Shown piece after piece: positions 5,468 through 64,000 of a DNA stretch of 64,000 bases (the stretch's first letter is position 1; every line of letters begins with the position of its first letter). A program made the position numbers and the translations under genes. Below the pieces are notes generated by a model, which worked only from the letters and a program-made list of their open reading frames with translations, ran no database searches and was not told the origin of the DNA. Origin of the DNA: Eledone cirrhosa (Eukaryota); assembly GCA_964016885.1 (NCBI GenBank), contig OZ024741.1, positions 79,794,001 to 79,858,000 on the forward strand, read 5' to 3'.

Positions 5468-6467
5468 GTTTGAATTTGTAAAGCCAAAACAATGCAGGTA
5501 TGGACATAGAATAAAAAATGCAAATGCTAAAGATATTGTTGACAATTAGTCTTTTACCTTAGATTTATTTAAATGTCCTTAATTTTCGAGATAATATCTC
5601 TTCTTCGGAGGGAAGTAAAGTGGTTAAACCAGTGTTCTAAATAGCTTGCCAAGTCATGCTGACAGGAAATGGTATAGAGTATCAGTTCTATCTCTAATGT
5701 CAAAGAGTTAAGGTTAGGTGGATAAAGAGTAGTCTCCCTTTAAAAGGTTTTTTGGGGGTACATGTCTGTTTAAGTGTGTGGGAGAATGCGTGAATGTGTA
5801 AGTATGTGTGTGTGTGAGTGTGAGAAGATATGTCTATACGTAAATGTGGGGGATAGATGTTCTCTCGTGTTAGAACTGGTCTTTGTGTGTGTATCTGTGT
5901 GTGTGAGAGAGAATAAGTGGAGGTGTAAGCGCGCGTGTGTGTGTGTGCGTGTGCGTGCGTGTGTGTATGCGTGTGTGTGGGAGGGGGGTGTAAGTATGGG
6001 GCTAGATGCTCTATCAAGTTATAAATTGGGAGTTGAGTTCTAGTCTATTATTGATTGGTGGTTGTGCTTTGTCTATAATTAGTGCTTCCTTAATTCTAAG
6101 ATTGCCGAGGTTTCTTTCCTTAGTTTCTATCCTAACTGTCATGGTTTTGTCGGTGTTTTTGCATTTCACTAGGTGTTTCTTAAATAAGGAAGCGTTAGTA
6201 TTGAGGTGCTCTTTTATTCTTATGTGGAGTGGTCTGGTGGTGCTACCTACGTAGAAGTTGCTGCATTTGTCGCACTCTAGTCTGTATACGACGTAAGCCT
6301 GGTGGCATAGGTCTGTGTCAACACCCAATTTATAACTTGATAGAGCATCTAGTCCCATACTTACACCCTCCTCCCACACACACGCACACACACGCACGCA
6401 CACACACACACACACACGCGCGCTTACACCTCCACTTATTCTCTCTCACACACACACATACACACGC
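5466..6467 (-). mobile_element. 5'-truncated Penelope/Poseidon-type PLE: GIY-YIG C-terminus, 3' UTR, inverted 5' arm
   Basis: 6014-6320 encodes VVYRLECDKCSNFYVGSTTRPLHIRIKEH...LRIKEALII...PPIN. 6318-6467 is the reverse complement of 5886-6036. A degenerate HHR (CCGAAGA..GAGAT/ATCTC-GAAA) lies at 5575-5612, and the element ends at (TA)n. Confidence 0.85.
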
Positions 6468-13096: not shown

Positions 13097-16000
13097 TGAG
13101 TATATGTTGGTTGTATACCAACACCTCAGTATGCAGGATGGAGCACTCGACGAAGTGCGCAGGTTGGTTTGGTTACTCTAGAGTAATGTAAAATAAAATA
13201 AATAAAAAAAGTCAAATGTTTAAAATTTGGCTTCGTTTATTACTGCTATATATATTTCGGTGACAGCCATTTTCGGCTGTGACCTCTTCAGGCAGTCCGA
13301 ATTAGTGTGGTAGAGACGAGTACACATGTTGTTGATGTGTATAACTTTGTCAATACTCTGATATGCCCAGTTCCTGGTTGGGTTGTTATTTCACTGAGGA
13401 ACTGAAATCATATGAATTTAAACAAACGAATTTCATCGTCAAAGGGCCTCTTCTCCTCTCATTGGTCAGTTATTAGAACATTCCTCAGTCAAAAGTCTAT
13501 AGAAATTCGTTCTGAGGCAAGCCAATCTGTAGTTGTTGTTCTTTTTATTGTTAGGTACATCTGACCTCTATTCTTATGTTGGTAGTGGTGTTGTTGTTGG
13601 AGTCAGCTCAAAAAAATGATAAAGTGGTGGAAGGAATAAGATGGTAAAGGGACAAATTAAAATAAAATAATCGAATAAAATGTGTGATATACCCATCTCA
13701 ATGTTATAAAGATTTGTAAGGTCACTCTTCCCATTGGTCATTTTTGAGAGCATTCCTCAGTCCAAAGTCTATAGATATTCTTTCTGGGGTGAGGCTCCCT
13801 TTAGTGTTTGTATATATATATATATATACATATACACACACATAAAACAGTGCATATATGTGTGTGGGTGGGAACGGGGTTGTGGTGCGTGTGTGTGTTT
13901 TTCAGTATGTTTGTCACAGATCCCTTTGTGGTGTGTGTGGGGGTGAATCTAATGAGGGTGATACGTATTTAGTTTTGCTTTAAATTTGTTAATAAATAGT
14001 TTTTCTTTATTTATTCTTTGTTGTTGAGTGAAAGAATCGGAGCACTTGTAAAGGATGAAGATTTTAAAGTTGGGTAGAGTCATTCCTGCACAATCTGCAA
14101 TGTGGCTACTTAAGGAGATTTTCCTTGTGTTTACGTCTCGGATTTGTTGGCGATGGATGGTCATTATTTTGCGTAATGATACCCCGTCTGTCCTATATAG
14201 TTATGTCGACAACCACCACATGTGATTACATAGATCAGGTTCTCCGAGTTGCAAGTGAAGATGTTTTTCACTGTGAAAGTTTGGCCATCTTTAAACGTAA
14301 ATTTGTGTCCTTCAATTAAGTATAAGCATGTTCCACAGTTTGTTCTTCCGCATTTTGTTACCGTAAGGTTGGAGATAGGTTTGTGTATCTTTGTTCCAGT
14401 GAGAATGTGTTTTAGTGATTTGGGTTGCCTTTTGCTTTTGATGATCTTGTGTGTTTCTAGAATTGTTTTTCATTTTTTCATTTTTAAATAGAATGGGGAG
14501 GTTTTTGTGTAGGAGGTCGAATATTGCGGTGTTTCTGTGGTTGAACGTGGATACATATGGTAAGGTATTGTTTGTGGTTCTGTGCTTTGGGTTGTTGGGT
14601 TCATGAACATTTGCGTGTTTTGTTTTGTCTATTCCGTTATTAATTATGTCAAGTGGGAAGGCTCTTAAGGTAAGTGTGTTTTTGAGTTCATTTAGTCTTT
14701 GTTCCCGTTTAGCTGGGTCTGATACTATGGTTCATATAGGTTTGGCTAAATTGAAAGGGATGTTAAGTTTTGTATGTTTTGGGTGATTTGATGTGAATAG
14801 GAGGTACTGCTTGGAGTCCGTGGGTTTGTAATAGAAGTCTGTCTCTATTTTCCCATCTGTTTTTAGAATGCGAATATCCAGGAAGGCTAATTCCTTGGAG
14901 TAGTTAGATTCCATTGTGAATTGTATATTATTGTTAATGTTGTTAATCATATTCTTGAAAAGGGTGAGTGTATTTGTGTCTTCCTGCCATAGAATGAAGC
15001 AATCGTCGAGGTATCTCTTCCAGTTGTTTTTGAGATGTGTAAGGAAAGATTCTCCGAATAATAGAAAGGATTGGTTGTAGATTTGTCGTTCGTGGAATCC
15101 CATGACTAAGTTGGCCTTTGTGCCCATTGCAGTTCCTGAGATTTGTCGGTATGTTAAGTCATTGAAAGTAAAGAAATTATTCTGTAAGATAAATCGGAGT
15201 CCATCAATAATGAAGATTTTGTTGATGCGTGTTGGTATTTCTGATTGGTGAGTGTCTAGCCAAAACTGGATTGCTGTTATTCCATGGGGTATGTTAGTGT
15301 AGAGATTTACTACATCAAAGGAGACTGGAACAGTGTTTTCACTTACTGTTTTGGGTAGGTGGTTCAGCATATCCAGGTCATCCCGTATGTAGCTCTGTAT
15401 ATGTTTTAGAAAGGGCTTCAGTAGGGTGTCCAGGAAGTTGCTAAGTCTGTGGGTTTCACATGCAGGGCCTGCTATAATTGGTCTGAGTGTTAAGTCTTCT
15501 GGTGGTGTTAATTGTATGTATTTGTTAGTTGAGGTGTCGCATCCATTGCTTATGGGTTTACATTTATGTATCTTCGGTAAGCCGTAGAAAGCACTTGTAT
15601 TACATTTGAAATGACTTATGTATTCATATTCCTTTTGTGGTTAGGTTACTGCGGTATTTTTGCAGTGATGCTAGGAGGTTCCCCAAAAGTTTTAGTTTGT
15701 TTGTAGTTTGATTTTTCGTAGCATTTGTTGTCGTCTAAGATTTTGAGTGCCAGGTCTCTATAGTAGTCAGTGTCCATAATGACTACAGTGCTCCCTTTAT
15801 CAGCTTCTTTGATGGTTATTTCAGTGTTGTTTCGCAGTGTGAATAATTTTTTCCATTCGTGTTTGGAGAGGTTCGATTTTGTGTGTTTATTTGTGATTTG
15901 TTCATAGGGAAAGTTAATGATGCGTTCGCAGTAGGTGTCCAGTGTTGTGTTCCTCCCTTTCTTTGGGGAGAAATCACTTTTGTTTCTCACTATTGATTCG

Positions 16001-16508
16001 TCTTCTGTGTTGGTGTCATTGGAGAAGTATTCTATTAGTCTGAGTTTTCGGCAGAATTCCATTATGTCATCTTTCATCTCGGGGAAGTTAGATTTTTATG
16101 GTGTGGGTGTAAAGTTCAGTCCCTTACTTAATATATTAATTTGTGTGATAGTTAGTGATATCTTTGAGAGGTTAATTATCTTCGGCTTCTTATGAGTGGA
16201 AGCCATCGGATGTCCTGGTATTTCAGTCTTGTTCCTAAAAAAGGAATGTTCTTTTGGTTGTAATTGTAGTCTGCTTGACTGTTTTGTATGGGTCTGTATG
16301 TAGTTTTATTTTTACATGAGAGTTAATGTGGTGTTGGGGGTGGTATCTGTTGTAGTTGTTATTGTGTAAGGGTTCTGTTGTGGGTTCATGTGGTCTGGGT
16401 GGGTTCCTTCTGGGATGCATAGTGTTGATGTTGTGGGGTTGTTTTTTGTAGTGTTGGGGGTGATACCTGCTGTAGTTGTTAATGTGGGAAGGTTTGGTTC
16501 GGATTTCA
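13097..16508 (-). mobile_element. 5'-truncated, frameshifted Neptune-type PLE (sister of 17030-23038)
   Basis: ORF pieces 15646-16077, 14732-15370 (SFDVVNLYTNIP, GTAMG, RYLDD) and 13949-14164 are colinear with the 18417-20694 protein. ORF1 C-terminal remnant at 16170-16500. (TA)n at both ends. Confidence 0.93.
13242..13296 (-). ncRNA. Canonical minimal hammerhead ribozyme
   Basis: ACTGC-CTGAAGA-GGTCACAGCC GAAAAT GGCTGTCACC-GAAA-TATATA-TA-GCAGT; all core nucleotides intact, 5-bp stem I. Confidence 0.88.
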
Positions 16509-16912: not shown

Positions 16913-17034
<122 letters not shown>

Positions 17035-17132
17035 AAATTGAGGTTGGTAATGGCACATGGAATATATAAGAGACAGAATACTTTTTTGTGAAAAAACATA
17101 ATTTTATAAGGTAAGGAAATAATAAAGGGTAT

Positions 17133-17184
17133 AAAAAATGACCGGTTTCGATGGGTCTGCAAAAGCCATCTTTTCAAATGTTGA
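17133..17184 (-). ncRNA. Hammerhead variant with U3-A8 core (3' pLTR; copies at 22097-22148 minus and 22848-22899 plus)
   Basis: TTGAAAA-GATGG...CCATC-GAAA-CCGG-TC with palindromic ACCGGT stem III; stem I weak. Confidence 0.65.
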
Positions 17185-17638
17185 TTAATATTAAGAAAAA
17201 TTAATAATACGAAGAGTTAAAATTTGAGACTTGAAAATTCAAGTATAAAATTCATTGTGGGATTTCATAGCAGTTTTCATCTTGGTAGCAACAACAGGTT
17301 GACTGCTGTGTCCCTTTCTGGTAGTGAATGAGAAGTTATTTGGGGTGTGGGTTATTTTATAAAGGTCAGATTTAGCAATCACCAACTGGCCAGCTGCTGG
17401 TCAGTGAGGGGGTGGAAGCAATATACATACACATATCTTCCTGTGATGGGTAGGAGAGTGGAGCGTGATAGAAAGGGATTTAGTGCACTTACACCTATAT
17501 ATACACACATACCTTCATCCACACATACATACATATACATATACATATATATATATATATATACATATACACACATACATACACACACACATACATATAC
17601 ATACACACATACACACACACACATATATATATACACAT

Positions 17639-17701
<63 letters not shown>

Positions 17702-17740
17702 TATATATACATACACATACATCCAGATACACACATACAT

Positions 17741-17818
<78 letters not shown>

Positions 17819-18416
17819 CCCCACACATACATACACACACACACACATATATATATACATACACACATACAAACATACACACACACACACACATATATAT
17901 ACACACACATACACACACATATATATACACACACACACACACACGCATATATATATATATATACACATACGCATACATCCAGATACACACACACACACAC
18001 ACGCACACACAATACATACATCCACATGCACACACATACACACACACACACACACATATACACATACATACACCCACACACAGAGAAATGGCCTTCAAAT
18101 ATATATATATATATATACATACAGACACATATATTTTTTCCATAATATAAGAAGTTGGGGCAGTGAAATTAAAATACAAGTCATTCTGATCACATTGAGT
18201 TCTTCATGTAGATTGGGCCCCGCAACCGACAGTGGTGAATTCTGTGTGCGCATATATATATAGATATATGTGTGTGCACGTGCAGGGTTTAACATGGATG
18301 TGTTGGTCACACAAAGGCATGGTCTGTCAATGAATAAACCTGATTCTACAGAATTGGTCTCTGGTCTTTAATAGTAGTGATTCCGTGCGTATGTGTGTTT
18401 ATATTTTATGACAATT

Positions 18417-20694
18417 CTATTGGGGTGATAACCCGTTTAGTTTTGGTTTAAATTTGTTAAGGAATAGATTTTCTTTGTTTATTCTTTGTTGCTGTGTGAA
18501 CGAATCTGAGCACTTGTAGAAGGGGAAGATTTTAAAGTTGGGTAGTGTCATTCCTGCGCAGTTCGCAATATGGCTGCTCAAGGGGATTTTTCTTGTGTTA
18601 GCGTCCCGGATTTGTTGGCGGTGGATGGTCATTCTTTTGCGTAATGAGGATTCCCGTCTGTCCTATGTAGTTGTGTTTGCACCCACCGCAAGTTATTGCG
18701 TAAATCAAGTTCTCCGAGTTGCAGGTGAAATTGTTTTTTACTGTAAATGTTTGGCCATCTTTGAATGTAAATGTTTGTCCTTCAGTGAGGTAGAGGCACG
18801 TTCCACAGTTTGTTCTACCACATTTGGTAACTGTAGGGTTGAGGATTGGTTTGGGTATATTTGGTCCAGTGAGAATGCGTTTAAGTGATTTGGGTTGTCT
18901 TTTACTTTTAAGGATCTTGTGTGTTTCAAGAATAGACTTCATTTTTACATCTTTAAGTAGGATGGGGAGGTTTTTGTGTAGGTGATCAAACATTTCGGTA
19001 TTTCTGGGGTTGAAAGTGGATACATATGGCAGGGTGTTGAGTGTGGTTTTCTGTTTTGGATTGTTAAGTTGATGGGGATTTAGGTGTTTTGCCCTGTCTA
19101 TTCCATTGTTGATTATTTCAAGTGGAAAGGCTCTTAAGATAAGGGTGTCTTTTAGTTCCTTTAGTCTTTGCTCCCGTTTAGGTGGATCTGATACTATGGT
19201 ACATATACGTTTGGCCAAATTGTAAGGAATGTTAAGTTTTGTATGTTTTGGGTGACTTGATGTGAAAAAGAGGTATTGCTTGGAATCTGTGGGTTTATAG
19301 AATATATCTGTATCTAATTTCCCGTCTATTACAGAGATGAGAATATCCAAGAAGGCTAATTCCTTAGGATTGGATTCCATTGTGAATTGTATGTTATTAT
19401 CTATGTTGTTTATCATGTTTTTAAACGTAGTAAGTGAGTTCATGTCTTCTTGCCATAGGATAAAGCAGTCGTCTAGATATCTTTTCCAATTGGCTTTGAG
19501 GTGTGTGTGGAAAGAGTCTCCAAATAAGAGAAGGGACTGACTGTATATTTGTTGTTCATGGAATCCCATGACTAGGTTGGCATATGTGGGTGCTACTTTC
19601 GTGCCCATTGCCGTACCTGATACTTGTCTGTATGTTGAACCATTGAATGTGAAGTAGTTATTTTGTAGGATAAAGCGGAGTCCGTCAGTGATAAAATCTG
19701 TGTTGATGCGTGTCGGTATTTCTGATGGGTGTGTGTTAAGCCAGTATTGGACTGCTGTTATTCCATAGTTGTGAGGTATGTTTGTGTAGAGGTTTATTAC
19801 GTCAAAGGAGACAAGAATTGTATTTGCACTTACTGTTTTAGGGAGGTGTTTCAGCATGTCAAGGTCATCTCGTATGTAGCTCTGTATATGTTGTAGAAAG
19901 GGTTTCAGTAGGATGTCCAGAAAGTTGCTAAGTCTGTGGGTTTCACATGTAGGGCCTGCTATAATTGGCCTGAGTTTTAGGTCTTCTGGTGGTGTTAGTT
20001 CAATGTAATTGTTGGTTGAGGTGTCACATGCATCGTTTATGGGTTTACATTTGTGAAGTTTCGGTAACCCGTAAAAAGAGCTTGTATTGCATTTGAAGTG
20101 GCTTATATAGTTAAACTCTTTTGTGGTTAAGCTGTTGCGGTATTTATTCAGTAAGGTCAAAAGGTTCCCCATTGTTTTGGTGTGTTTGTAGTTTTCTGTT
20201 TTTTCATAGTATGTGTTGTTTTCTAAAATGTTAAGTGCGAGGGTCCTATAGTAGTCCGTATTCATAATGACAACAGTACTGCCTTTATCGGCTTCTTTGA
20301 TAGTTATCTCAGGGTTGTTTCTAAGTGTGAATAATTCTTCCCATTCGTGTGTAGATAGGTTTGATTTCGTGTGTTTATTTGTAATTTTTTCATAGGGAAA
20401 GTTGGTGATGTGTTCGCAGTACGTGTCCAGTGCTTTATTTCTTCCCTTTTGTGGGCAGAAATTGCTTTTATTTCTAACCAGTGATTCGTCTTCAGTGTTG
20501 GTGTCGTTGTGGAAGAATTCCGTTAGTCGCAGCTTTCGGCAGTATTCCATGATGTCATCCTTCATTTCGGGGAAGTTTGGTTTACGTGGTGTAGGTGTAA
20601 ATTTCAGGCCCTTACTTAAAATGTTGATTTGTGTGTTGGTTAGAGGTGTCTTTGAGAGGTTGATTATTTTTGGTTTCTCCTGAGGGGGGGCCAT
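18417..20694 (-). CDS. PLE reverse transcriptase, Cys-rich linker and C-terminal GIY-YIG endonuclease (one 1-bp insertion near 18648)
   Basis: Motifs IINLS..LSKGLKFTPT, ADKG, FYGLPKLHK, RPII, SFDVINLYTNIP, GTAMG, RYLDD, FLD, CGRTNCGTC, LIYAITCGGC..YIGQT. The tail continues in ORF 18417-18632. Confidence 0.95.
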
Positions 20695-21929
20695 CGAGTA
20701 TCCTGGTATTTCAGGCTTTTCCCTAAAAAAGGAATGTAGTTTTGTGTGTGATTATATTTTGTTGGTCTGTTGCGTGTGGGTCTGTAGCTTGTTGTTTCAT
20801 GAGAGTGAATGTGATGGTGGGGGTGGTATGTGTTGTGGTTGTTGATGAGCAAGGGTTCTGTTGTTGGTTCATGTGGTCTGGGTGCGTTATTTCTGTGGTA
20901 CAGAGTGTTGAGGCTGGGGGGTTGTCTTTTGTTGGATTGAGGGTGATGTCTGGTGTGGTTGTGGGTAAGTTCTGTTGTGATTTCAAGTGGTCTGGGTGGA
21001 TTTCTTCTGAGGAATGTGGTGTGTGTGTTGTGAGTTGGATCTATGTTATTTCGTCGTTGGTTTATGTAGGGGGCATTTCTACGGAAACCTGTGTTGTGGT
21101 GGTTGGGTGTGTTTCTTTTGGTGTAGTTGGCCGTATTTGGTTTGTGTTGGTGGGGGATGTGCCTGTGGTTAGTGTGTGTTGGGTTTGGTGGTGTAAATGT
21201 GTCTGTTGTAGTTCTTGTTATGTTCAAATGCTTTATAAAGGGGTTACCTGTTTGGTGCGTCCTTTTAAAGTCTTCTTCATATTTGAGGAACCAGTTTTCG
21301 GATTTTTCCCACCGTTTAAGGGAAATAGTTTCTGCATTCTCGCAGCCCTGTTTCCACGATTTGATTAAATTTTGTAGGGTTGTTCCCTCGGCCTTTTTAG
21401 TGCATTCTTCCTCCATATTTTTATCAGTATCCTTATACTCTTGCTCGTTTGAGGTGGCCCTTAATTTTAGGAGTTCTATTTCCATGTTTATCCTGTTGAG
21501 TGACATTTGTTCACGGAGTTTTCTTTCTGGTTCAGGTTCGTTTGTAATATGCTTTATTTGGAATTTACGTGGTAAAACTATCGGTGTTGAGTTAATCCAT
21601 TTTTGGTAAATTCCAGCTTTGTTGAGGTTTTTTATCATATTCCAGAAAGTGAATTTTCTGGTTTTTAGATGTTTTTTCCAGAGGTGTCCCATTTGGTTTT
21701 TGATATGGAGCAATGTCGTTTGTTCTGTGTTGGTATTCATAAGTTTTTCGATGGAGTTGCATACGTTTTGAACGTTTAAATAAATTTGGTTGTCAGTCGG
21801 TGTGGTGGTTTGGGGTATATCCTGTTTTTTTGTCAGAATGGTGAGTTTTCCATTTATCTCTTTTAGGATTTTCAGGATTTCCTCATTGATATTGGAGTTT
21901 GAAGTTGTGTTGTCTTGTTCCAGTGCCAT
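20664..21929 (-). CDS. PLE ORF1, 421 aa: predicted coiled-coil N-terminal part and His/Asn/Thr/Pro/Arg-rich tail
   Basis: Uninterrupted ORF starting 28 nt after the pLTR end and overlapping the RT ORF. Its C-terminal part is homologous to 16170-16500. Confidence 0.85.
   Translation of the reverse strand: MALEQDNTTSNSNINEEILKILKEINGKLTILTKKQDIPQTTTPTDNQIYLNVQNVCNSIEKLMNTNTEQTTLLHIKNQMGHLWKKHLKTRKFTFWNMIKNLNKAGIYQKWINSTPIVLPRKFQIKHITNEPEPERKLREQMSLNRINMEIELLKLRATSNEQEYKDTDKNMEEECTKKAEGTTLQNLIKSWKQGCENAETISLKRWEKSENWFLKYEEDFKRTHQTGNPFIKHLNITRTTTDTFTPPNPTHTNHRHIPHQHKPNTANYTKRNTPNHHNTGFRRNAPYINQRRNNIDPTHNTHTTFLRRNPPRPLEITTELTHNHTRHHPQSNKRQPPSLNTLYHRNNAPRPHEPTTEPLLINNHNTYHPHHHIHSHETTSYRPTRNRPTKYNHTQNYIPFLGKSLKYQDTRWPPLRRNQK
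20724..20730 (-). promoter_or_regulatory. Candidate -1 ribosomal frameshift heptamer U_UUU_UUA
   Basis: In ORF1 phase (CCT TTT TTA GGG); the -1 frame runs into RT; conserved at 16236-16242. Confidence 0.75.
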
Positions 21930-21957
21930 TTTCCGGATTTGCGTAGGTTAGTATATA

Positions 21958-22303
21958 TGAAAAGTGTAATTTTCTACACAAAGCGAAGGTTATAGAGAAA
22001 ATTGAGGTTGGTAATGGCACATGGAATATATAAGAGACAGAATACTTTTTTGTGAAAAAACATAATTTTATAAGGTAAGGAAATAATAAAGGGTATAAAA
22101 AATGACCGGTTTCGATGGGTCTGCAAAAGCCATCTTTTCAAATGTTGATTAATATTAAGAAAAATTAATAATACGAAGAGTTAAAATTTGAGACTTGAAA
22201 ATTCAAGTATAAAATTCATTGTGGGATTTCATAGCAGTTTTCATCTTGGTAGCAACAACAGGTTGACTGCTGTGTCCCTTTCTGGTAGTGAATGAGAAGT
22301 TAT
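21958..22303 (-). repeat. Upstream pseudo-LTR
   Basis: Apparently identical to 17030-17339 plus a 36-nt 3' extension; followed by TATATA and a short leader to the ORF1 ATG. Confidence 0.92.
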
Positions 22304-22318
22304 GTGTATGTATATATA

Positions 22319-22387
<69 letters not shown>

Positions 22388-22454
22388 ATGTGTATATATA
22401 TATGTGTGTGTGTGTATGTGTGTATGTATATGTATGTGTGTGTATGTATGTGTG

Positions 22455-22493
<39 letters not shown>

Positions 22494-23033
22494 GTATATG
22501 TATGTATGTGTGGATGAAGGTATGTGTGTATATATAGGTGTAAGTGCACTAAATCCCTTTCTATCACGCTCCACTCTCCTACCCATCACAGGAAGATATG
22601 TGTATGTATATTGCTTCCACCCCCTCACTGACCAGCAGCTGGCCAGTTGGTGATTGCTAAATCTGACCTTTATAAAATAACCCACACCCCAAATAACTTC
22701 TCATTCACTACCAGAAAGGGACACAGCAGTCAACCTGTTGTTGCTACCAAGATGAAAACTGCTATGAAATCCCACAATGAATTTTATACTTGAATTTTCA
22801 AGTCTCAAATTTTAACTCTTCGTATTATTAATTTTTCTTAATATTAATCAACATTTGAAAAGATGGCTTTTGCAGACCCATCGAAACCGGTCATTTTTTA
22901 TACCCTTTATTATTTCCTTACCTTATAAAATTATGTTTTTTCACAAAAAAGTATTCTGTCTCTTATATATTCCATGTGCCATTACCAACCTCAATTTTCT
23001 CTATAACCTTCGCTTTGTGTAGAAAATTACACT

Positions 23034-23465
<432 letters not shown>

Positions 23466-25562: not shown

Positions 25563-28410
25563 AAAAACAATAATAAATGCATGGATAATTCAGAGTTCAA
25601 AATAAGGTCTATAATATTTTATAGTTTGTATATTTGCTCTATATTTGAATCATGGATATAAAAATGCAGTAGGTATATTTAAAAACATAGAAAATATAAT
25701 TACATACATATTATAAATAAGAGATCAAAAACGCATGAAAGATTCACACTTAGAAATAAGTTCCGTAAAGATGTATGGGTTGGATATTAAACTAAAATTT
25801 AAAACTTAGATAGGAAGATAAATATAGAGAAATAAAGAAATAATGGTATGGATCAAAGTTAATAATATTATGTTATGTATATCAATGTTCCGGCATGTTA
25901 TTGAACAAGTGTCTTTCATTCGAGCGTTATTTCTTCTATAGATAGTTATAAGATAATGCAATATTAAAGGCCATTAATGTTTTTCCCTGTTGATTATATA
26001 CGCCTGACAACCAAGTTTTTAATGGTTTAGTGTTTCTCTCTCTTTTTTTCTCGTTTTTGTGGGAGGCTAAGAATGTGGACGTAGCTTTATGGAGGCAACT
26101 AGAGAATAATTCACTTTTTTTGTTAATTAGGGTCTCATAGTTATTAATAATCAACAGGGTCTCCATTGTACAAAGCGCGCAGTTATTTGATATACTAGAG
26201 TTGCGGTAAACTCCACAGTTCCGAAGTTTTGTCCAAAGAATGGAGTATTTTAAATTCCTCTCTTTTAATGACCATATGAGCTGTGATAAAGACGTGGATG
26301 ATTTCCTCTTGGAGTTCGAGAATGAGCATTTATGGTTCGCAAATCTGGCTTTAAATGTAGAAGAAGTCGATCCTATGTAGTTGTATGTGTTGAGATCAGT
26401 TTTTACGGTGCATTTATAAACCAAATTACTATCTAGACAATTATTTTGCAAAGGGCAATCAGTTTTATTTCTACAATTACATGTTGGTTTAGTATCATTT
26501 ATGTTAACTCTATTATTAAGATCATTATGCTGGTTTTGTTTGAGGATTTTAGTGTTTAATTTGGCAATGTTTGGGGCCATATTCATAGTTGTAGAATACG
26601 AGAATTTAATGGTAGGTCTATTAAAAATGGAATGGTATTTATGGAGTAGGGAAAGAGGTGTCCAAAGCGTTAAAGAATAATTTTGCAATTGGTGTTTTAA
26701 CTGCGACCGAAGTAGGGTGTGGGGGCGAACCATATGACTGATTTAGTTCTAGTTCTTATCCTCGATTTATTTGGCGTATGGGTGTTTGAATTATAATTAT
26801 TAGAGTTTCTCTTATATATGTTATTATTTTTATGAAGATTAATACTTGGATTATTATTATTATCTACATATTCTATATTATTCATATATCCTGCTCTTTT
26901 TAACGTGTTGTTGTAGTATTCACCGTTTTCATCGAATATAGCTTTATTGGCTGATATTTTATTAATTCGTTTTTGCACACTATTTACTATAGCTTTTTTT
27001 ACAGATTTAGGGTGATTGGAATGGTTACTAACATAGTTTAAGTTTTCATTGGGCTTATGAAAAGGGTAATAGAAGTCAGTGTTTAAGTTAAACGTAACGT
27101 CTAGGAAATTAACTATATTTTGGTACCATTTTCTACTTCTAACTTAAGGTCGTACATTTTAAAGAATTCTATTATACTTTTCTTTACTCTATTTAGTTCT
27201 ATATTGTTGTGTTTGACCACCGTAAATAAAATGTCGTCCCTATATAAACCACCGGTAATCTCCGGCAGTTTTCTATTTATCATATTTAATATGAAAATTC
27301 CCAGAAGATCTGTGATTTGCGCGGAATCAGATGCCTCCATAGTGATATCAAAGTTTCTATCTCTATCTGAGCGAGTCCAATATTCGTTGTTGAAGTTAAT
27401 AAGAGTTCTTCTGGCTGTTAGTATTATATCTATTTCATCCGTGGTTATATCAGTATGCTTATAAGCATATGAAAGAGCCTTATTTAGAAGGTTAGGTGTT
27501 ATGGAAGAATAGTAGCTAGTAATGTCCATCTGGATGAATTTATGGTTTTTATTATCTTCTATATTCGTGTACCATTCTATGACTTCATTTGTATCTTTCC
27601 ATAAGCTCAAATTAGATCTCAATTTAAGAGTGGGTAATATTCTATCTATGATGTTTTTACTGATTACTCCAATATCCGATTTCGATGGAGCAATCAGTTT
27701 AACTGGCATCTCTTCCTCAAACTTTCTTTTGTAATCCTTCAAGTTAATCCTCGGCTGCCTAGGTAAGAATGGCTCGGTTCTTCCTTCTATTCCTAAATTG
27801 GTAATTAATTTGTAGGCTTCTTCATTAATTTCAGTAAGATCATCAGCCGGGGCTTTTTTGTAATTTTTCCTAAGTTCCTTTAACATCAAGTTGTTATATT
27901 CATCTTTGCTTATCCCATATATATTATTAGTTTTGTCCGATTTAACCAATACTTTGTTAACATTTTTTATTTCCGTGATTTTTTCTTTTAGAGTTCTAAG
28001 GTATTGGTGACCTATATATGGGTTTTTTCCTAAATTTAATTTTTTTTATTATACCCAGAAGTCTGTTGTATGGAGGATTCTTTCTTGATTTAAATAAAGA
28101 TCCAAAATGATTGTTGTTGGATTTTCTTTCAGCATCTTTATTTTCGAAATGAAAAGCTCTCCATCTCATTCTTCTAATAAAAGAGTTTGCATGTTCGATA
28201 GTTTTCCTCATGTATTCTTCATTTGAAGTTATGGGTATATCTTTGAGGGAAATCGGGAAGTTTAAGAAATCCATATTTATTGAATATGCAATCTATTGTA
28301 TAGAAAAGCGCTCAACCATTTGGGAACAGTATATATTAAAGAGTTAAACAAGATTCAATGAGTATATCAAAGAATGAGTTTTACAGTAGATTGGAAGCAC
28401 TCTACAGTAA
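24474..28410 (-). mobile_element. Full-length, frameshifted single-ORF Nematis-type PLE
   Basis: ORF pieces 27996-28274 (FIRRMRWRA), 27113-27949 (KSDKT, MDITSYYSSI, FDITM, LYRDD), 26697-26978 and 25936-26733 (CNCRNKTDCPLQNNC, LVY..YIGST). Long 3' UTR with HHR; pLTR remnant at 28337-28410. Confidence 0.92.
24521..24573 (-). ncRNA. Minimal hammerhead ribozyme
   Basis: ATTTTGT-CTGATGA-GGACGTAC TGTT GTACATCC-GAAA-TATGTT-TA-ATAAAAT. Confidence 0.85.
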
Positions 28411-33009: not shown

Positions 33010-34426
33010 GGGACATAGAAATAATCGGGCTGGATGCCCGATCGCGCAGTTAAACCACTGGGAGTGAAGAACCCCTAGCCCTTGTCAGGGCATTCTTCTA
33101 GGAGAAGGCATCTCAGGAAACTGGGTTAACTCCGACATAAAACCTGCGGCTCAGTAGTTACCGATGATGTTGATCTTTTCTTCTTTTCGGGTTATAGCTA
33201 CTGTCGCTCAGAGAGTGAGATTGGCTCAGTGCACAGTCTTTCCTCACTTTAAAAATATTTGTCACGCACAGGCATTGCACGAGTGCATTAATAATTATTA
33301 ATAGTGTACTATTATTATTATTATTATTATTACTATTATTATTACTTTTTTTTTTCCCCCAAAGTGATGCTTTCGGAAAGCTAGAAAGGCGACTCTGGGG
33401 TCGGCGAGACATATGCAGGAGGACAAAGGTAAAGGTCTACAGGGCATGTGTGCTCTCTTGTCTTCTTTATGCCTGCGAGACCTGGGTCACATATCGACAC
33501 CACCTTAAGCAATTGGAGCGTTTCCATCAGATGTGTCTCAGACGGATCCATGGCGTTCACTGGAGGGACCACATCAGTGATGTCGAGATTTTGGAAAGCT
33601 CTATGTGTGACAGTATAGAAGCTCTTGTGCTTAAGCAACGACTCCGTTGGAGTGGTCACCTTGCCAGGATGAAGGATTCTAGAATACCAAAACAACTCTT
33701 TTATGGAGAGTTGGTTAAAGGAAAACGACCGCCACATAAACCAAAAAAGAGGTATAAGGATTCCTTGAAAGCCTCTCTGAAAGACGCTAACATCTCTGCT
33801 GATACATGGGAGAATATTGCTGCTGATCGTAATAAATGAAGAAAGACTGTATATGAGGGAAAAGTTGCCTTTGAGGCATCTCGAATCGCATACGAGAAAG
33901 TAAAGCGGGATGTGAGGAAGGGCATTGTTGTTGCACTTCCAGACGGCGAGGGTCCTCCTATGGTGCTGACATGCAGCGTATGTGCGAGACTCTGCCTAAG
34001 CAAAGCTGGACTCGAAAGTCATCTTCGCAGTCATAAAGTAAGACCAGTGGTTGACTACCAGGTTGCTGTTGGAGATGCTACTCATCATGCTTGCCAAACA
34101 TGTGGTAGAGAATGTAAATCAGCAGGAGGGCTCAAGCGACATGCAAAAGTACACGAACTCCAACCACAGTCGACTATTCCCAGTGAATGTTTTGGTTGCC
34201 GACTCTGTGCAAGACATTTTAGATCATTGGCTGGGCTAAAAAGCCACATTCGATCGCAGCGCTGTTAGTTGCTATCGTGTGTGTGTGTGTGTGTAGATAT
34301 GCTTATGTGTGTGCGTGTGTGTGTATATATATATGTATATGTATATTATTATTGTTGTTGTCGTTATTATTATTGTTGTTATTATTATTATTATTATTAT
34401 TATTGTTATTAATGTATGTGTGTGTG

Positions 34427-41990: not shown

Positions 41991-43001
41991 ATGAAATCGA
42001 AAATGTCTTATTTTTAAAAAAATATATATATATATTTATTTGGTTCCTTTAACGGTTTCGCAGTTCTTCTGCTTTTCAAAAGTAGAGTTGAGATGGAGGG
42101 TCTGTGGTTTTTCTCACATCTGGTTGGTCTCTGAATGTTACTTGTTTTATATGGAAAAAGGTGGCTCGAAATGCCAGGTTTTTAGAGAAGTAATTTGATT
42201 GGTTGGTCAATAATTATAATAAATTTCGCGCCAGTTCGCGTTACAAAGTTCTTCAAACAAGGGGGGGGGGACAGTTTGTTTTTTCATATATGAGTGTCTG
42301 AATTTCTTTTTCTTAAAAAAAGGGGACTCACGAAGGCTTTTTTTAAATAAACGTAATTTGATTGGTTATAAATGAAATTATGGCTGTCACGTGAACAAGT
42401 TTTCATTAAATTTTCGCGCCCTTTTTTGAAAATCTATTCTGTAGCCTATTTAGAGAATTTTATGACAAGCAAAAGATAATGGTCAAGAGAAATGGGATGG
42501 GAGAATGGTTGTCATAAAATTCTCTAAGAAGGCTACAGAATAGATTTCCAAATAAGGGCGCGAAAATTTAATGAAAACTTGTTCATGTGACAACCATAAT
42601 TTCATTTATAACCAATCAAATTACGTTTATTTAAAAAAAAAGCCTTCGTGAGCCCCTTTTTTAAAGTAAAAAGAAATTCAAACACTCATATATGAAAAAA
42701 CAACCTTTGCCCCCCCCCCCCCCCCCTTGTTTGAAGAACTTTGTAACGCGAACTGGCGCGAAATTTATTATAATTATTGACCAACCAATCAAATTACTTC
42801 TCTAAAAACCTGGCATTTCAAGCCACCTTTTTCCATATAAAACAAGTAACATTCAGAGACCAACCAGATCTGAGAAAAACCACAGACCCTCCATTTCAAC
42901 TCTACTTTTGAAAAGCAGAAGAACTGCGAAACCGTTAAAGGAACCAAATAAATATATATATATATTTTTAAATAAGACTCCAGTTGCATTTTCGATTTCA
43001 T
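41991..43001. mobile_element. Palindrome of about 1 kb made of two PLE pLTR copies
   Basis: Arms about 41991-42470 and 42507-43001, each with a U3-A8 HHR. Confidence 0.88.
42902..42943 (+). ncRNA. Hammerhead variant with U3-A8 core (mirror copy 42044-42085 minus)
   Basis: CTT-TTGAAAA-GCAG AAGAA CTGC-GAAA-CCGT-TA-AAG. Confidence 0.65.
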
Positions 43002-46049: not shown

Positions 46050-47350
46050 TCACTGAAAAACACACTCAATTAATTTGCCATAAGTCACACATTTCCCACA
46101 GCTCTTCGAGTCTGCAACTTTTACTTCTTTCGCGGCTAGTCATTGTCTTCTTCCATGTAGCTGAAATCAGGTCACTTGCTTCATTGAGATGTCATGTGAT
46201 AGCATCTATATAACGAAGTTTTTGAGCGTCCCCTTCGATGACTTCTACAGTTCTAGTTGATAAAAGACTTCAATCTTTCTTACATTGATTGATAGACCAA
46301 AATCTGTCGTCGCGTATTCAAAATAATGTGTAATTTATTTTATATCTTTCAGGGAATGTGCCACTAGCGCTGAGTCATCAACGAAGAAAACTTCATGGAT
46401 ATTAGGGCACTTCCTAGACGATTTTAGCTTAGATATGTTCAACAGTCTACCATTTGCTCTTGTACGGAAATATACTCCACAAGCGAACTCGCTCACCATA
46501 TTTTCAAGCACAACACCCAAGAACAGCACAAACAGTTTAAGGATAAGTACACAGACCTTCTTCACTACAACTGAAGAGGAGATTGAGCTGTTACTCCCAA
46601 AAGAGACTGTGGTTGACATCATTATGGAACAACATAATTATCTCTACATATTTGTGCAGGCATATATATATATCCGTTAAACAGGGTCCACAATCTCGCT
46701 CTTCTCATTGCCTTTGTGCAGAAAATAAATACGACGAAAAGCTGAACACGCTGTTTTAAAATTATTTCTTGAATTTGCCTCAAAGTGCAAATCCTATCGT
46801 TGGTACCCCTAGACATAGATATCAGGAAAAATTTACTCGGATATATTTTGTAAGTAGAATTTTTCCTGTGATAAAGAGGAAAACAATTTCTTGGCAATTT
46901 CCACAATCCTATTTGTCAGCCTTCAGCTTGTAAATGGTGATTATCGAAGCACGTTGTCTTTATGGATACAAAACACTATACATTGTACAAAGTATTCTAC
47001 AGAACAATACGTACTATGAAGAAGCCAAAGATTATAAACTTCATAAATAGGTGAAACATATCACCGTTTTACTGCACCAATACCGAACTTGTCTAGCCGA
47101 TAAGGAATTCGAATATCATACCAATTTTAATTAAGGATATGTAGTGACCTACATTCCGAGGGCTCATGGATACATTCTCCGTGCGTTGTTTGGCCCAGTT
47201 CAGCCAATCGCTACCAGCATAGGAAAATGTATCTCGACTTCTGCTCAGAGGAAAAAATTCCCGTTGCCATTCGAAACTCTCTCGCAGCTCGACACCGTGA
47301 AGGTAAACATCTCTTGCTTTCGTTCCTTCAAGTATAGACAATATGTAGCA
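46050..47350 (-). pseudogene. Decayed RTE LINE (RT and probable endonuclease remnants)
   Basis: SRGTNDRICTLRQIQE, GVYFRTRANGRLLNISKLK and FFVDDSALVAHS in ORF-track pieces. Confidence 0.75.
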
Positions 47351-62090: not shown

Positions 62091-62179
62091 TTGGTAGGAG
62101 GTAAGTTTTATTGTAGCACAATAAAACAATGCAAATATCGGATAAGTAGCACTCAACAGTTTATAGGACTGGAGTATAA

Positions 62180-64000
62180 ATAATATATACAACGCTCTCT
62201 CTTTTGCATTTAAATATTCTGACATCACCATAGATGAACTATACATCATTCTCACCGCAAATAAAACGATCCTGGAATTCAACAACCAATATTGGACTAG
62301 AGCTGAGACTTCCAACAATTTTGATATCACAATGGGTTCGTCGGATTCAGCGCAATTGACGGACTTGATTGGAATCTTTATTTTGAATTCTTTAAATCGG
62401 AAAATTCCTCAACTTCGCGGTGGAATTTATCGTGACGATGCCCTTTTTACTGTCTTAAACTGTAACTTAGTTAACCTTAATATTATTAAGAACAATATAC
62501 TTAATCTATTTAAGCACCATAACCTAAAAATTGAATTCGAAAACAACGTCAAACTAGCTAACTTCCTGAATGTATCCCTTAATCTTGACACCGGCCTATA
62601 TTACCCTTACCATAAAGACACTGTTAATTTTAAATCTAACCACCCTATTAACGTTAAAAATGCTATATTCAGTAATGTTGAAAAAAGAATCTCAAATCTA
62701 TCTTCTAATAAAGTTATCTTTGACGCTAAAGCCAATTATTACAATAATGCGCTTTCCAGAGCCGGTTATCCTGACAAAATAAAATACAGTAAAGAAACCA
62801 ATCAGCGAGGCACTTATAGTAATATAGTTAGTTATAAGCATTCCAATAACATAAAGAAAAGACCTAGATATAAAAATATGATTTGGTACAACGCTCCTTT
62901 TTCTCTATCTATTATTAGTAATATTCCTAAACTATTTTTAGGGCCTTAGATAAATGCTCCCCTCCCTCGCATATTTATAGTAAGATCTTTAATAAACATA
63001 CAATTAAATTCTCTTATTCCACCACTTCCAACATCTCTAACATTATCTCAAAGCATAATAATAAAATATTAAGTAATAAATTATATCCATCCAACACTGA
63101 GCGTCATAATAATAGCAACGTCAATGTTAACTCTAGGCTAGATTCCGTAAATTTAAATACGACGTCAAACGTAACTTTGTCGAATGTTCATAACACCAAT
63201 CTAAATCAGGAAACTTTAGCACCTATCGTAAATAACTTCTCCAATTCAATTCTTTCTATAAATAATACTGGGTCACTTGCTATTAATTCTGGTCATTTCT
63301 CTAATCGTAATTGCAATTGCCCTGTTAGAACTAAATGTCCTCTTAGTAACCAATGTCTTGATACAAATTTAGTGTATGAATGTAAGGTTATAACTGGTAT
63401 TATTCTTTTACCTATTTTGGTTCCACTTCCACTTCCTTTAAAGCAAGATTTTATAATCACAATTCTTCTTTTAAATACCAACTTAAAAGAATTAACACGG
63501 CACTCTCAGAACTCATATGGTCCTTAAAGGACAAAAATATTAACTACAACATTTCTTGGAGGAAGGTTTGCAACCCCTCTCCTTACCTTAATTCTTCCCT
63601 ATCCAGAACATGTAATCTCTGCCTAGCGGAGAAATTTACCATTATCTCTAATTTTAATTCTATAATAAATAGACGTAAGGATTTATTTTCGCTCTGCTTG
63701 CATAAATCCTATAGAACTTTCTATAAAATATACAGCTAATATCTTACTACCTAATTAGTTTAAAATCTTCTTTTCTCAAACGCTTTTATATTTTTTTACA
63801 AATATACCCATCTTTCTACCTTATTTCAGTATATTATACAATATTACTCATACTATGTCGTTAGCGGTCCGCTTAATTTACCATTATCTCTAATTTTAAT
63901 TCTATAATAAATAGACGTACTGATTTATTTTCTCTCTGCTTGCATAAATCCCATAGAACTTTCCATAAAGTATACAGCTAACATCTTACTACCTAATTTG
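62180..64000 (+). mobile_element. 5'-truncated Nematis-type PLE (RT C-terminal half plus GIY-YIG)
   Basis: FDITMGSSDSAQLTDLIG, IYRDD, WYNAPFS, CNCPVRTKCPLSNQC, CNLCLAEK; homologous to 25936-27500; direct repeat 63633-63756 and 63875-63998. Confidence 0.9.

Follow-up and report, generated by a model that had tools for sequence, protein, structure and literature searches.

How is the reverse transcriptase (RT) of a retrotransposon translated when its reading frame is the -1 frame of the open reading frame (ORF) upstream and overlaps the end of that ORF? This question is raised by an element in a 64,000-nucleotide (nt) stretch of the Eledone cirrhosa genome (assembly GCA_964016885.1, contig OZ024741.1, positions 79,794,001 to 79,858,000 of the forward strand), the whole of which is called the window here and to which all coordinates refer. 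The element is an endonuclease-bearing Penelope-like retrotransposon, young and present in many copies, with two overlapping ORFs on the minus strand. ORF1 (20664..21929, minus strand) encodes 421 amino acids (aa) from an ATG at 21929 and ends with TAA at 20666-20664. ORF2 (18417..20751, minus strand) lies in the -1 frame and encodes a linker, the RT, a Cys-rich linker and a GIY-YIG endonuclease (EN). A first-pass annotation of the window had drawn attention to a possible frameshift site at this junction. From sequence comparison we conclude that the RT-EN of this element is most likely made by -1 ribosomal frameshifting on the heptamer U_UUU_UUA.

The heptamer is located at 20724..20730 (minus strand), where the ORF1 codons read ATT CCT TTT TTA GGG AAA. 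In ORF1 phase it encodes the Phe-Leu of Pro-Phe-Leu, T TTT TTA is in the X_XXY_YYZ phase, and the site lies inside the overlap of the two frames. It is the single TTTTTT(A/G) run in the 3511 coding bases of the element. The -1 frame is closed by a TAA at 20752..20754 (minus strand), 7 codons upstream of the heptamer, and past the heptamer it continues as REKPEIPGYSMAPPQEKPKIINLS into the RT, which belongs to Pfam RVT_1 and in which the Penelope-type N-terminal GLKF and ADKG motifs could be read. The ORF1 stop is codon 20 after the slippery Leu. Our rereading of the sequence agreed with the first-pass annotation on the position and phase of the heptamer, on the closing TAA and on the course of the -1 frame into the RT, and the RT, the GIY-YIG domain and the pseudo-long terminal repeats (pseudo-LTRs) described below bear out its assignment of the element to the endonuclease-bearing Penelope-like group.

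In the proposed mechanism, ribosomes translating ORF1 would slip back one base at U_UUU_UUA and go on as ...IPF(L/F)REKPEIPG... into the RT-EN. Judging from the ratio in gag-pol systems, a minority would slip and most ribosomes would end at the ORF1 stop. The predicted products are free ORF1 and, beside it, a 1170-aa ORF1-RT-EN fusion with the junction peptide ...YIPF(L/F)R|EKPEIPGYSMAPPQEK. A fusion of about this size had been suggested for the window, and a -1 slip in the intact copy L108 does give 402 + 768 codons, that is 1170 aa. The window copy itself, however, is unable to make the full fusion because one extra base near 18650 breaks its RT frame, which ends at 717 codons, just past the GIY-YIG motif; ORF2 has 777 codons from stop to stop in intact copies. 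The extra base is missing in all 13 aligned loci of its family (family A).

A first look at the 3-Gb genome gave 630 junction candidates, and copies of the family are spread over many large contigs, within microsatellites; the insertions genome-wide sit in (TA)n tracts. Copies L108-L110 are 99.6-99.8% identical to the window copy, have 427 and 777 open codons, and share the two-frame layout. The junction is identical in 30 of the 30 best family A copies, which were picked for near identity and are uninformative on selection. An older, decayed and 5'-truncated sister copy of family B is present in the window itself (13948..16479, minus strand) and is 81% identical to the first over 2560 nt. It was confirmed to keep the heptamer (16242-16236), both overlapping frames, the ORF1 stop at codon 20 and the sequence block quoted in the first-pass annotation. 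Among 30 decayed family B copies, 27 retain the heptamer. In families C (L101, L114 and others) and D (L113, L125 and others), the ORF1 domain is about 51-54% identical to that of family A and the ORF1 tails are unalignable, and both families read CAT TTT TTA GAC in phase.

Outside the genome, the ORF1 domain has homologues in 495 clusters. The best 150 are all stand-alone proteins of at most 541 aa, and no longer ORF1 form scored among 265 longer candidates, although this negative carries little weight. The best 120 RT homologues (41-61% identity) are all at most 791 aa, and ORF1 and RT-EN are almost always annotated as separate proteins. Named homologues come from bivalves, and no relative was found in the viral contigs searched. 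Several loci (L211-L217) and protein P0190 represent animal Penelope elements inside bacterial metagenome-assembled genomes with bacterial labels, likely due to host contamination.

C-terminal ends were analyzed in 76 ORF1 homologues of at least 330 aa. Phe-Leu occurs within the last 45 aa in 63 of them, whereas the two protein segments before that contain it in 2 and 4 of the 76; these 63 cases were read via residues, not DNA. None of the 63 has K, E, Q, M or W ahead of Phe-Leu (0/63 versus a background of 20%; p 7e-7, relatedness ignored). This would be expected if the base before the run has to be a pyrimidine, since codons for these residues never end in U or C. In four further homologues (P0013, P0055, P0064 and P0150) Phe-Arg takes the place of Phe-Leu, about equally far from the stop; they could either use another shift site or be mutated copies.

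Comparison by DNA gave the same picture. Among 14 loci or families compared, metagenome loci included (L132 and L137 being close kin), 13 keep the heptamer and its phase, and the codons at the site in these 13 DNA cases are always TTT TT(A/G) with a T before them. The in-phase heptamer is present in all 9 loci with an ORF1 homologue, but among 48 other Penelope-type loci for which there is upstream sequence it is present in 4. The four positives among these controls are L140, which belongs to the same clade, L199, whose run falls within a long open frame, and the loci L194 and L203, discussed below. In a quick RT tree, the heptamer group formed one clade (SH-aLRT, a likelihood-based branch support, of 99) with the heptamer in 11 of 11 rows having 5' sequence; the tree consists of unnamed loci, with no named Neptune or Nematis references, and leaves out family B, L136, L137 and L186. 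L140 and L142 form a deep branch of this clade, with a linker of 81-84 codons between the heptamer and the RT motif and no ATG inside it. Protein ends and DNA together indicate that the heptamer is kept beyond what the encoded protein would require. Thus, a programmed -1 frameshift is supported by the phase-locked heptamer across the clade, by the lack of a conserved AG or AUG and by the separate annotation of ORF1 and RT-EN.

Several observations weigh against frameshifting. One is simply that L186 lacks the heptamer. Another is that in the window family an AG directly follows the U-run and an in-frame ATG comes 30 nt later; among the 27 family B copies with a heptamer, AG is present in 25 and this ATG in 23. 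The ATG raises the possibility that RT-EN starts at its own AUG or near-cognate codon 30 nt past the U-run, by reinitiation after ORF1 or internal initiation, with the U-run an accessory at a fixed distance. In families A and B this ATG at 20694 would yield a 758-aa protein with all RT-EN motifs; it overlaps codon 11 after the slippery Leu, which is TGG in the ORF1 frame (20691..20694, minus strand). Where codon 11 is a stop, it overlaps the codon at the same start position, in an AUGA-type arrangement if that codon is ATG. Moreover, the annotation of many RT homologues includes a Met 20-35 residues ahead of the GLKF motif, and in about half, as read by eye, a Met is annotated a short distance ahead of the conserved start. 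The codon at the start position is ATG, GTG, ATA, GTA or CTA among families and relatives, a set that near-cognate initiation might accommodate, but GTA and CTA are poor start codons. The conserved ATG pointed out in the first-pass annotation holds for families A and B, whereas the position is GTG in family C and ATA in family D. No ATG precedes the conserved LxxGLKF motif in 10 of the 13 DNA cases, and in an eleventh it is confined to the motif region; the first Met of family C is ~165 codons into the RT frame, past both GLKF and ADKG. From the heptamer to the RT start the frame is open in 13/13, in 4/13 it opens only 0-1 codon before the heptamer, and a U-run in Phe-Leu phase would be needless where the ORF1 stop is at codons 12-41. 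We therefore regard a separate start as unlikely.

The AG suggests a different route, in which the U-run and AG form a 3' splice site joining an upstream exon to the RT frame. The sequence TTCCTTTTTTAG|G fits an acceptor, AG follows in 9 of the 13 DNA cases, and G after the heptamer exceeds chance, as an acceptor would want (next residue V, A, D, E or G in 41/63 proteins versus a background of 19%). Two of the 120 RT homologues, the Mytilus gene models P0204 and P0286, unite ORF1 and RT sequence in one predicted protein, and intron retention has been described for Penelope-like elements (PMC8557442). However, L131, L140, L142 and L211 have no AG, the next residue in 22/63 proteins is incompatible with AG at that place, families C and D are A/C-rich upstream with no longer pyrimidine tract, and an acceptor requires neither a fixed ORF1 phase nor exactly six U. 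Splicing thus appears more improbable than a separate start. Both fail for the group as a whole, because 4/13 cases lack the AG and 10/13 lack the AUG. The two caveats are weaker at the level of the clade, although families A and B do have AG and in-frame ATG, which might serve as possible secondary routes.

Slightly less probable again is a polymerase that slips while transcribing or reverse-transcribing the element and so inserts an extra base into the U-run or a poly-C tract (20684..20690, minus strand), with the result that some RNAs encode the fusion in one frame. The poly-C tract is unstable in length, and lengths of +1 modulo 3 put ORF1 and ORF2 in frame; in 10 of 10 long-ORF copies inspected, ORF1 and RT are fused by a C-tract insertion (about 1176 open codons), which also counts against frameshifting. 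Among 100 family A copies listed of 168 matches, 48 have the reference length, 48 are longer by 1-21 bases and 4 are shorter, and a few family B copies have seven T in the run. Longer C-tracts often come with loss of the preceding G. The C-tract variation looks like neutral slippage, because lengths are uniform modulo 3 (12/18/18, p 0.47), and a programmed poly-C switch was rejected on the same ground, in-frame lengths not being favoured. In addition, the tract is not present in families C and D or in any distant locus compared, transcriptional slippage would leave the U-run phase free, and six U are short for it. Finally, it is very improbable that the two-frame layout was inherited by accident from a single-ORF ancestor, or that Phe-Leu is merely a protein motif. 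Endonuclease-bearing elements are canonically single-ORF (PMC8557442, PMC6431247), and Phe-Leu together with its short tail could serve as a binding motif. But the layout is shared by young, nearly identical copies, the site invariably has the codons and preceding T given above, and the same signal stands behind the unrelated ORF1 of L194 and L203.

In contigs from runs X1, X4, X5, X6 and X7, whose type is either DNA or not on record, no joint at 20722 appeared among the matches listed, and these contigs were not used as evidence. One low-depth X5 contig, likewise set aside, spans the junction unspliced with an extra T in the slippery run. Differences between X5 and the window over 18200-22320 are mostly A>G and T>C, which could be editing or edited genomic copies.

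If frameshifting is the route, what would stimulate it? A classical -1 cassette has a stimulatory stem-loop or pseudoknot 5-9 nt downstream of its heptamer. We found no conserved RNA fold after the heptamer: the following 60 nt fold no better than shuffled sequences in 12 of 13 cases (z scores of -1.8 to +1.4). A CCUG/CAGG hairpin of 4 bp (20702..20715, minus strand), noted as a candidate stimulator in the first-pass annotation, is indeed present 8 nt past the heptamer, but it is weak (-8.5 kcal/mol for the 60 nt in family A, z +0.7) and not conserved in other families, and family D has almost no pairing downstream of the heptamer. A conserved hairpin or pseudoknot as stimulator was rejected on this comparison of pairing energies with shuffles, in which folds were pseudoknot-free. 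The exception, which speaks against a structure-free site, is L133, with a real hairpin (z -4.3).

The position of the ORF1 stop, counted in codons after the slippery Leu, offered another clue. In the 63 proteins no stop occurs before codon 11, 22 are exactly at codon 11 and 41 fall at codons 12-41; off-frame stop density further downstream is 0.054 per codon. In the 13 DNA cases the stop is at codon 11 in five and at codons 13, 18, 20 and 21 in two each (one codon-18 case is a mutated family B copy; the sister copy in the window stops at 20). In families A, B and C and in L133, codon 11 is TGG, one base from a stop. The stop seems to be positioned relative to the heptamer and not to the RT, because the distance to the conserved RT start and the -1 codon at this position both vary. 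A second stop peak near codons 20-21 appears in the DNA cases (20, 20, 21, 21 and family B), but not in the 63 proteins, and is not claimed. The heptamer also occurs in L194 and L203, two Penelope loci that lie outside the clade and carry an unrelated ORF1; their stops are at codons 11 and 12.

With a stop at codon 11, the spacer is 10 codons, roughly the length covered by one eukaryotic ribosome. Smith et al. 2019 (PMC6815119) showed with E. coli reporters that trailing ribosomes shift to -1 more often when a stop follows the slippery heptad after 8-10 spacer codons (peak 9). Because this range includes the spacer of 10 here, we propose tentatively that a ribosome terminating 10 codons further on would keep the one behind it on the slippery codons. 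Such queue-stimulated shifting might be the ancestral design, though we regard this as less likely than not. In the window family the codon-11 stop would have turned into TGG, leaving shifting to rely on the intrinsic slipperiness of the run, the weak hairpin or a longer queue from the codon-20 stop. In SARS-CoV-2 a near stop helps by another route, pseudoknot refolding (PMC8168617), and stop position and queuing are treated in PMC8168617 and PMC7544508.

It should be noted that several points weigh against the stop-spacing rule. On the ORF1 tree the codon-11 stops group together (7 changes, against 18 after shuffling): 20 of the 22 cases fall in one weakly supported half of the tree, which also contains the nearest hits of family A. 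Because of this clustering the 22 cases are not independent. Stops later than codon 11 are found in 41 of 63 proteins and in the window family (codon 20). Furthermore, a low stop frequency is partly expected, because the 30 nt after the site are U-poor.

L194 (1911-3839) and L203 (1-975) represent a second Penelope lineage with a different ORF1 ending on U_UUU_UUA. We take this ORF1 to be esterase-like from its GDSN and DGxH motifs; Pfam and PDB searches with it gave no match. It is possible, but in our view doubtful, that the endonuclease-bearing lineage and this independent lineage with its unrelated ORF1 both use a structure-free cassette consisting of U_UUU_UU(A/G) and a stop one ribosome-length downstream, with the window family derived and its stop at about two ribosome-lengths. 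If true, RT output would be tuned by ribosome load and termination speed, because the terminating ribosome would be the roadblock. Ribosome collisions in eukaryotes normally trigger quality control. The cassette would then be a natural eukaryotic case of collision-programmed frameshifting, otherwise known, in the texts seen, from bacterial reporters, and the stop-spacing rule would provide dozens of compact natural cassettes for testing collisions at stops as a eukaryotic frameshift stimulator. For a large, mollusc-centred lineage, frameshifting would also change the textbook one-ORF layout of endonuclease-bearing Penelope elements. The 495-cluster ORF1 family appears to be new; annotation pipelines separate ORF1 from the RT, and the true RT-EN protein can be predicted.

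The remaining anatomy of the element is that of its group. The GIY-YIG motif, read from the sequence, contains two internal cysteines (LIYAITCGGCKHNYIG; 18661..18708, minus strand), and both Cys/His pairs of the CCHH motif of this C-terminal domain are present in an intact copy. A Pfam scan of the element itself gave no score for the GIY-YIG domain, and PF01541 (GIY-YIG) occurs in the precomputed annotation of many RT-EN homologues. In the RT-EN linker, a C-x4-C-x2-C motif (approximately 18796..18822, minus strand) was found in families A, C and D and fits the CX2-5CxxC pattern of Neptune/Nematis (definition in PMC8557442). ORF1 consists of a conserved all-helical domain (about residues 60-240) followed by a low-complexity tail rich in N, H, R, P and T. 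It had no Pfam family, no Atlas hit and no Foldseek/PDB match at E 0.001 or better. The AlphaFold model of residues 61-240 shows four long helices (predicted local distance difference test score, pLDDT, 95.7), so a coiled-coil partner would fit, and on this model ORF1 may be a helical oligomerising or RNA-packaging partner of the RT-EN.

Pseudo-LTRs are present both as direct and as inverted repeats, as in endonuclease-bearing Penelope-like elements. The 5' pseudo-LTR segment (21952..22306, minus strand) is a direct repeat of the 3' pseudo-LTR, which with its upstream tail extends to a (GA)n/(TA)n tract (17030..17719, minus strand); an inverted pseudo-LTR copy with a microsatellite-rich tail reaches a (TA)n tract (22301..23044, plus strand). 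A hammerhead-like motif lies in the 5' pseudo-LTR (22142-22103, minus strand) and also upstream of ORF1 in L101. Its core reads UUGAAAA versus CUGANGA, possibly a U3-A8 variant; core and stem II were seen by eye only, and stem I is complete in family C and weak in family A. An Rfam search gave no hammerhead match and only microsatellite noise. In L109 and L132 tandem copies follow each other head to tail and two complete ORF1s are present, a partial-tandem arrangement that is usual for Penelope-like elements.

Elsewhere in the window, two decayed copies of a different Penelope-type element (25936-28045, minus strand; 62167-63739, plus strand) have RT motifs and a C-terminal NYIG endonuclease motif, and a GIY-YIG endonuclease fragment (6014-6445, minus strand) belongs to a further Penelope-type family. 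RTE-like long interspersed nuclear element (LINE) fragments were found at 33219-34268 (plus strand) and 46335-46637 (minus strand), the 3' part of the former (near 33840-34268) encoding several C2H2-like zinc-finger repeats. At 42018-42969 there is a 253-nt inverted repeat, 99% complementary with arms 446 nt apart, possibly a pseudo-LTR fold-back or a small DNA transposon.

With regard to known systems, an ORF1/RT frameshift in Penelope-like elements generally is already in print; the texts searched yielded no account of this endonuclease-bearing lineage, its ORF1 family, the heptamer or the stop spacing. The literature search, whose reach did not extend to figures, Repbase reports, Arkhipova 2006/2017 or Gladyshev 2007, gave no description of the heptamer in endonuclease-bearing elements. 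The available parts of PMC3846280, PMC13282606, PMC4700185 and bioRxiv 10.64898/2026.07.22.740005 contain nothing on this site. According to the legend of Fig. 1 of Craig et al. 2021 (PMC8557442), which does not name clades, a frameshift with a pseudoknot can set ORF1 apart. The two-ORF Penelope-like elements of that paper resemble the present one in having a coiled-coil-like ORF1 upstream of the RT with a frameshift between them; here, in contrast, there are an endonuclease, U_UUU_UU(A/G), no conserved pseudoknot or hairpin, and a candidate stop-spacing rule. Endonuclease-bearing elements are called single-ORF in PMC8557442, and two ORFs are tied to endonuclease loss in PMC6431247, whereas intact copies and relatives of the present element have two overlapping ORFs.

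An ORF/RT frameshift has reportedly been described for Athena/Terminon. These elements likewise have a Penelope-type RT behind coiled-coil ORFs (PMC6431247, PMC5408684), but they have no fused GIY-YIG and attach to telomeres, whereas the present element has RT-linker-GIY-YIG, pseudo-LTRs and (TA)n sites. With Neptune/Nematis (PMC8557442) it shares the internal cysteines of GIY-YIG, the Cys-rich linker motif, direct and inverted pseudo-LTRs, and microsatellite targets. Neptune-like elements may have an esterase ORF (PMC5408684) or a short separate ORF1 (killifish preprint, bioRxiv 10.1101/2025.05.22.655539); the passages available on them mention no frameshift, and ORF1 here is a 420-aa helical protein without a Pfam or PDB match.

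The junction itself resembles the gag-pol junction of human immunodeficiency virus 1 (HIV-1) and LTR retrotransposons, with the same heptamer and phase, a structural ORF followed by a -1 polymerase, and expected Leu/Phe heterogeneity at the junction. The HIV-1 site has a stem-loop stimulator, whereas the present element, of a different retroelement class, shows no stable stem-loop and no protease or capsid motifs. U_UUU_UUA is the HIV-1 gag-pol frameshift site, as the first-pass annotation stated (PMC5009743, the available text of which does not mention Penelope). The E. coli collision reporters (PMC6815119) are synthetic and bacterial, whereas the Penelope cassette is natural, eukaryotic and deduced from conservation alone. 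Both nevertheless have a slippery heptad one ribosome-length before a stop and no RNA stimulator, with the peak at 9 spacer codons in the reporters versus 10 here.

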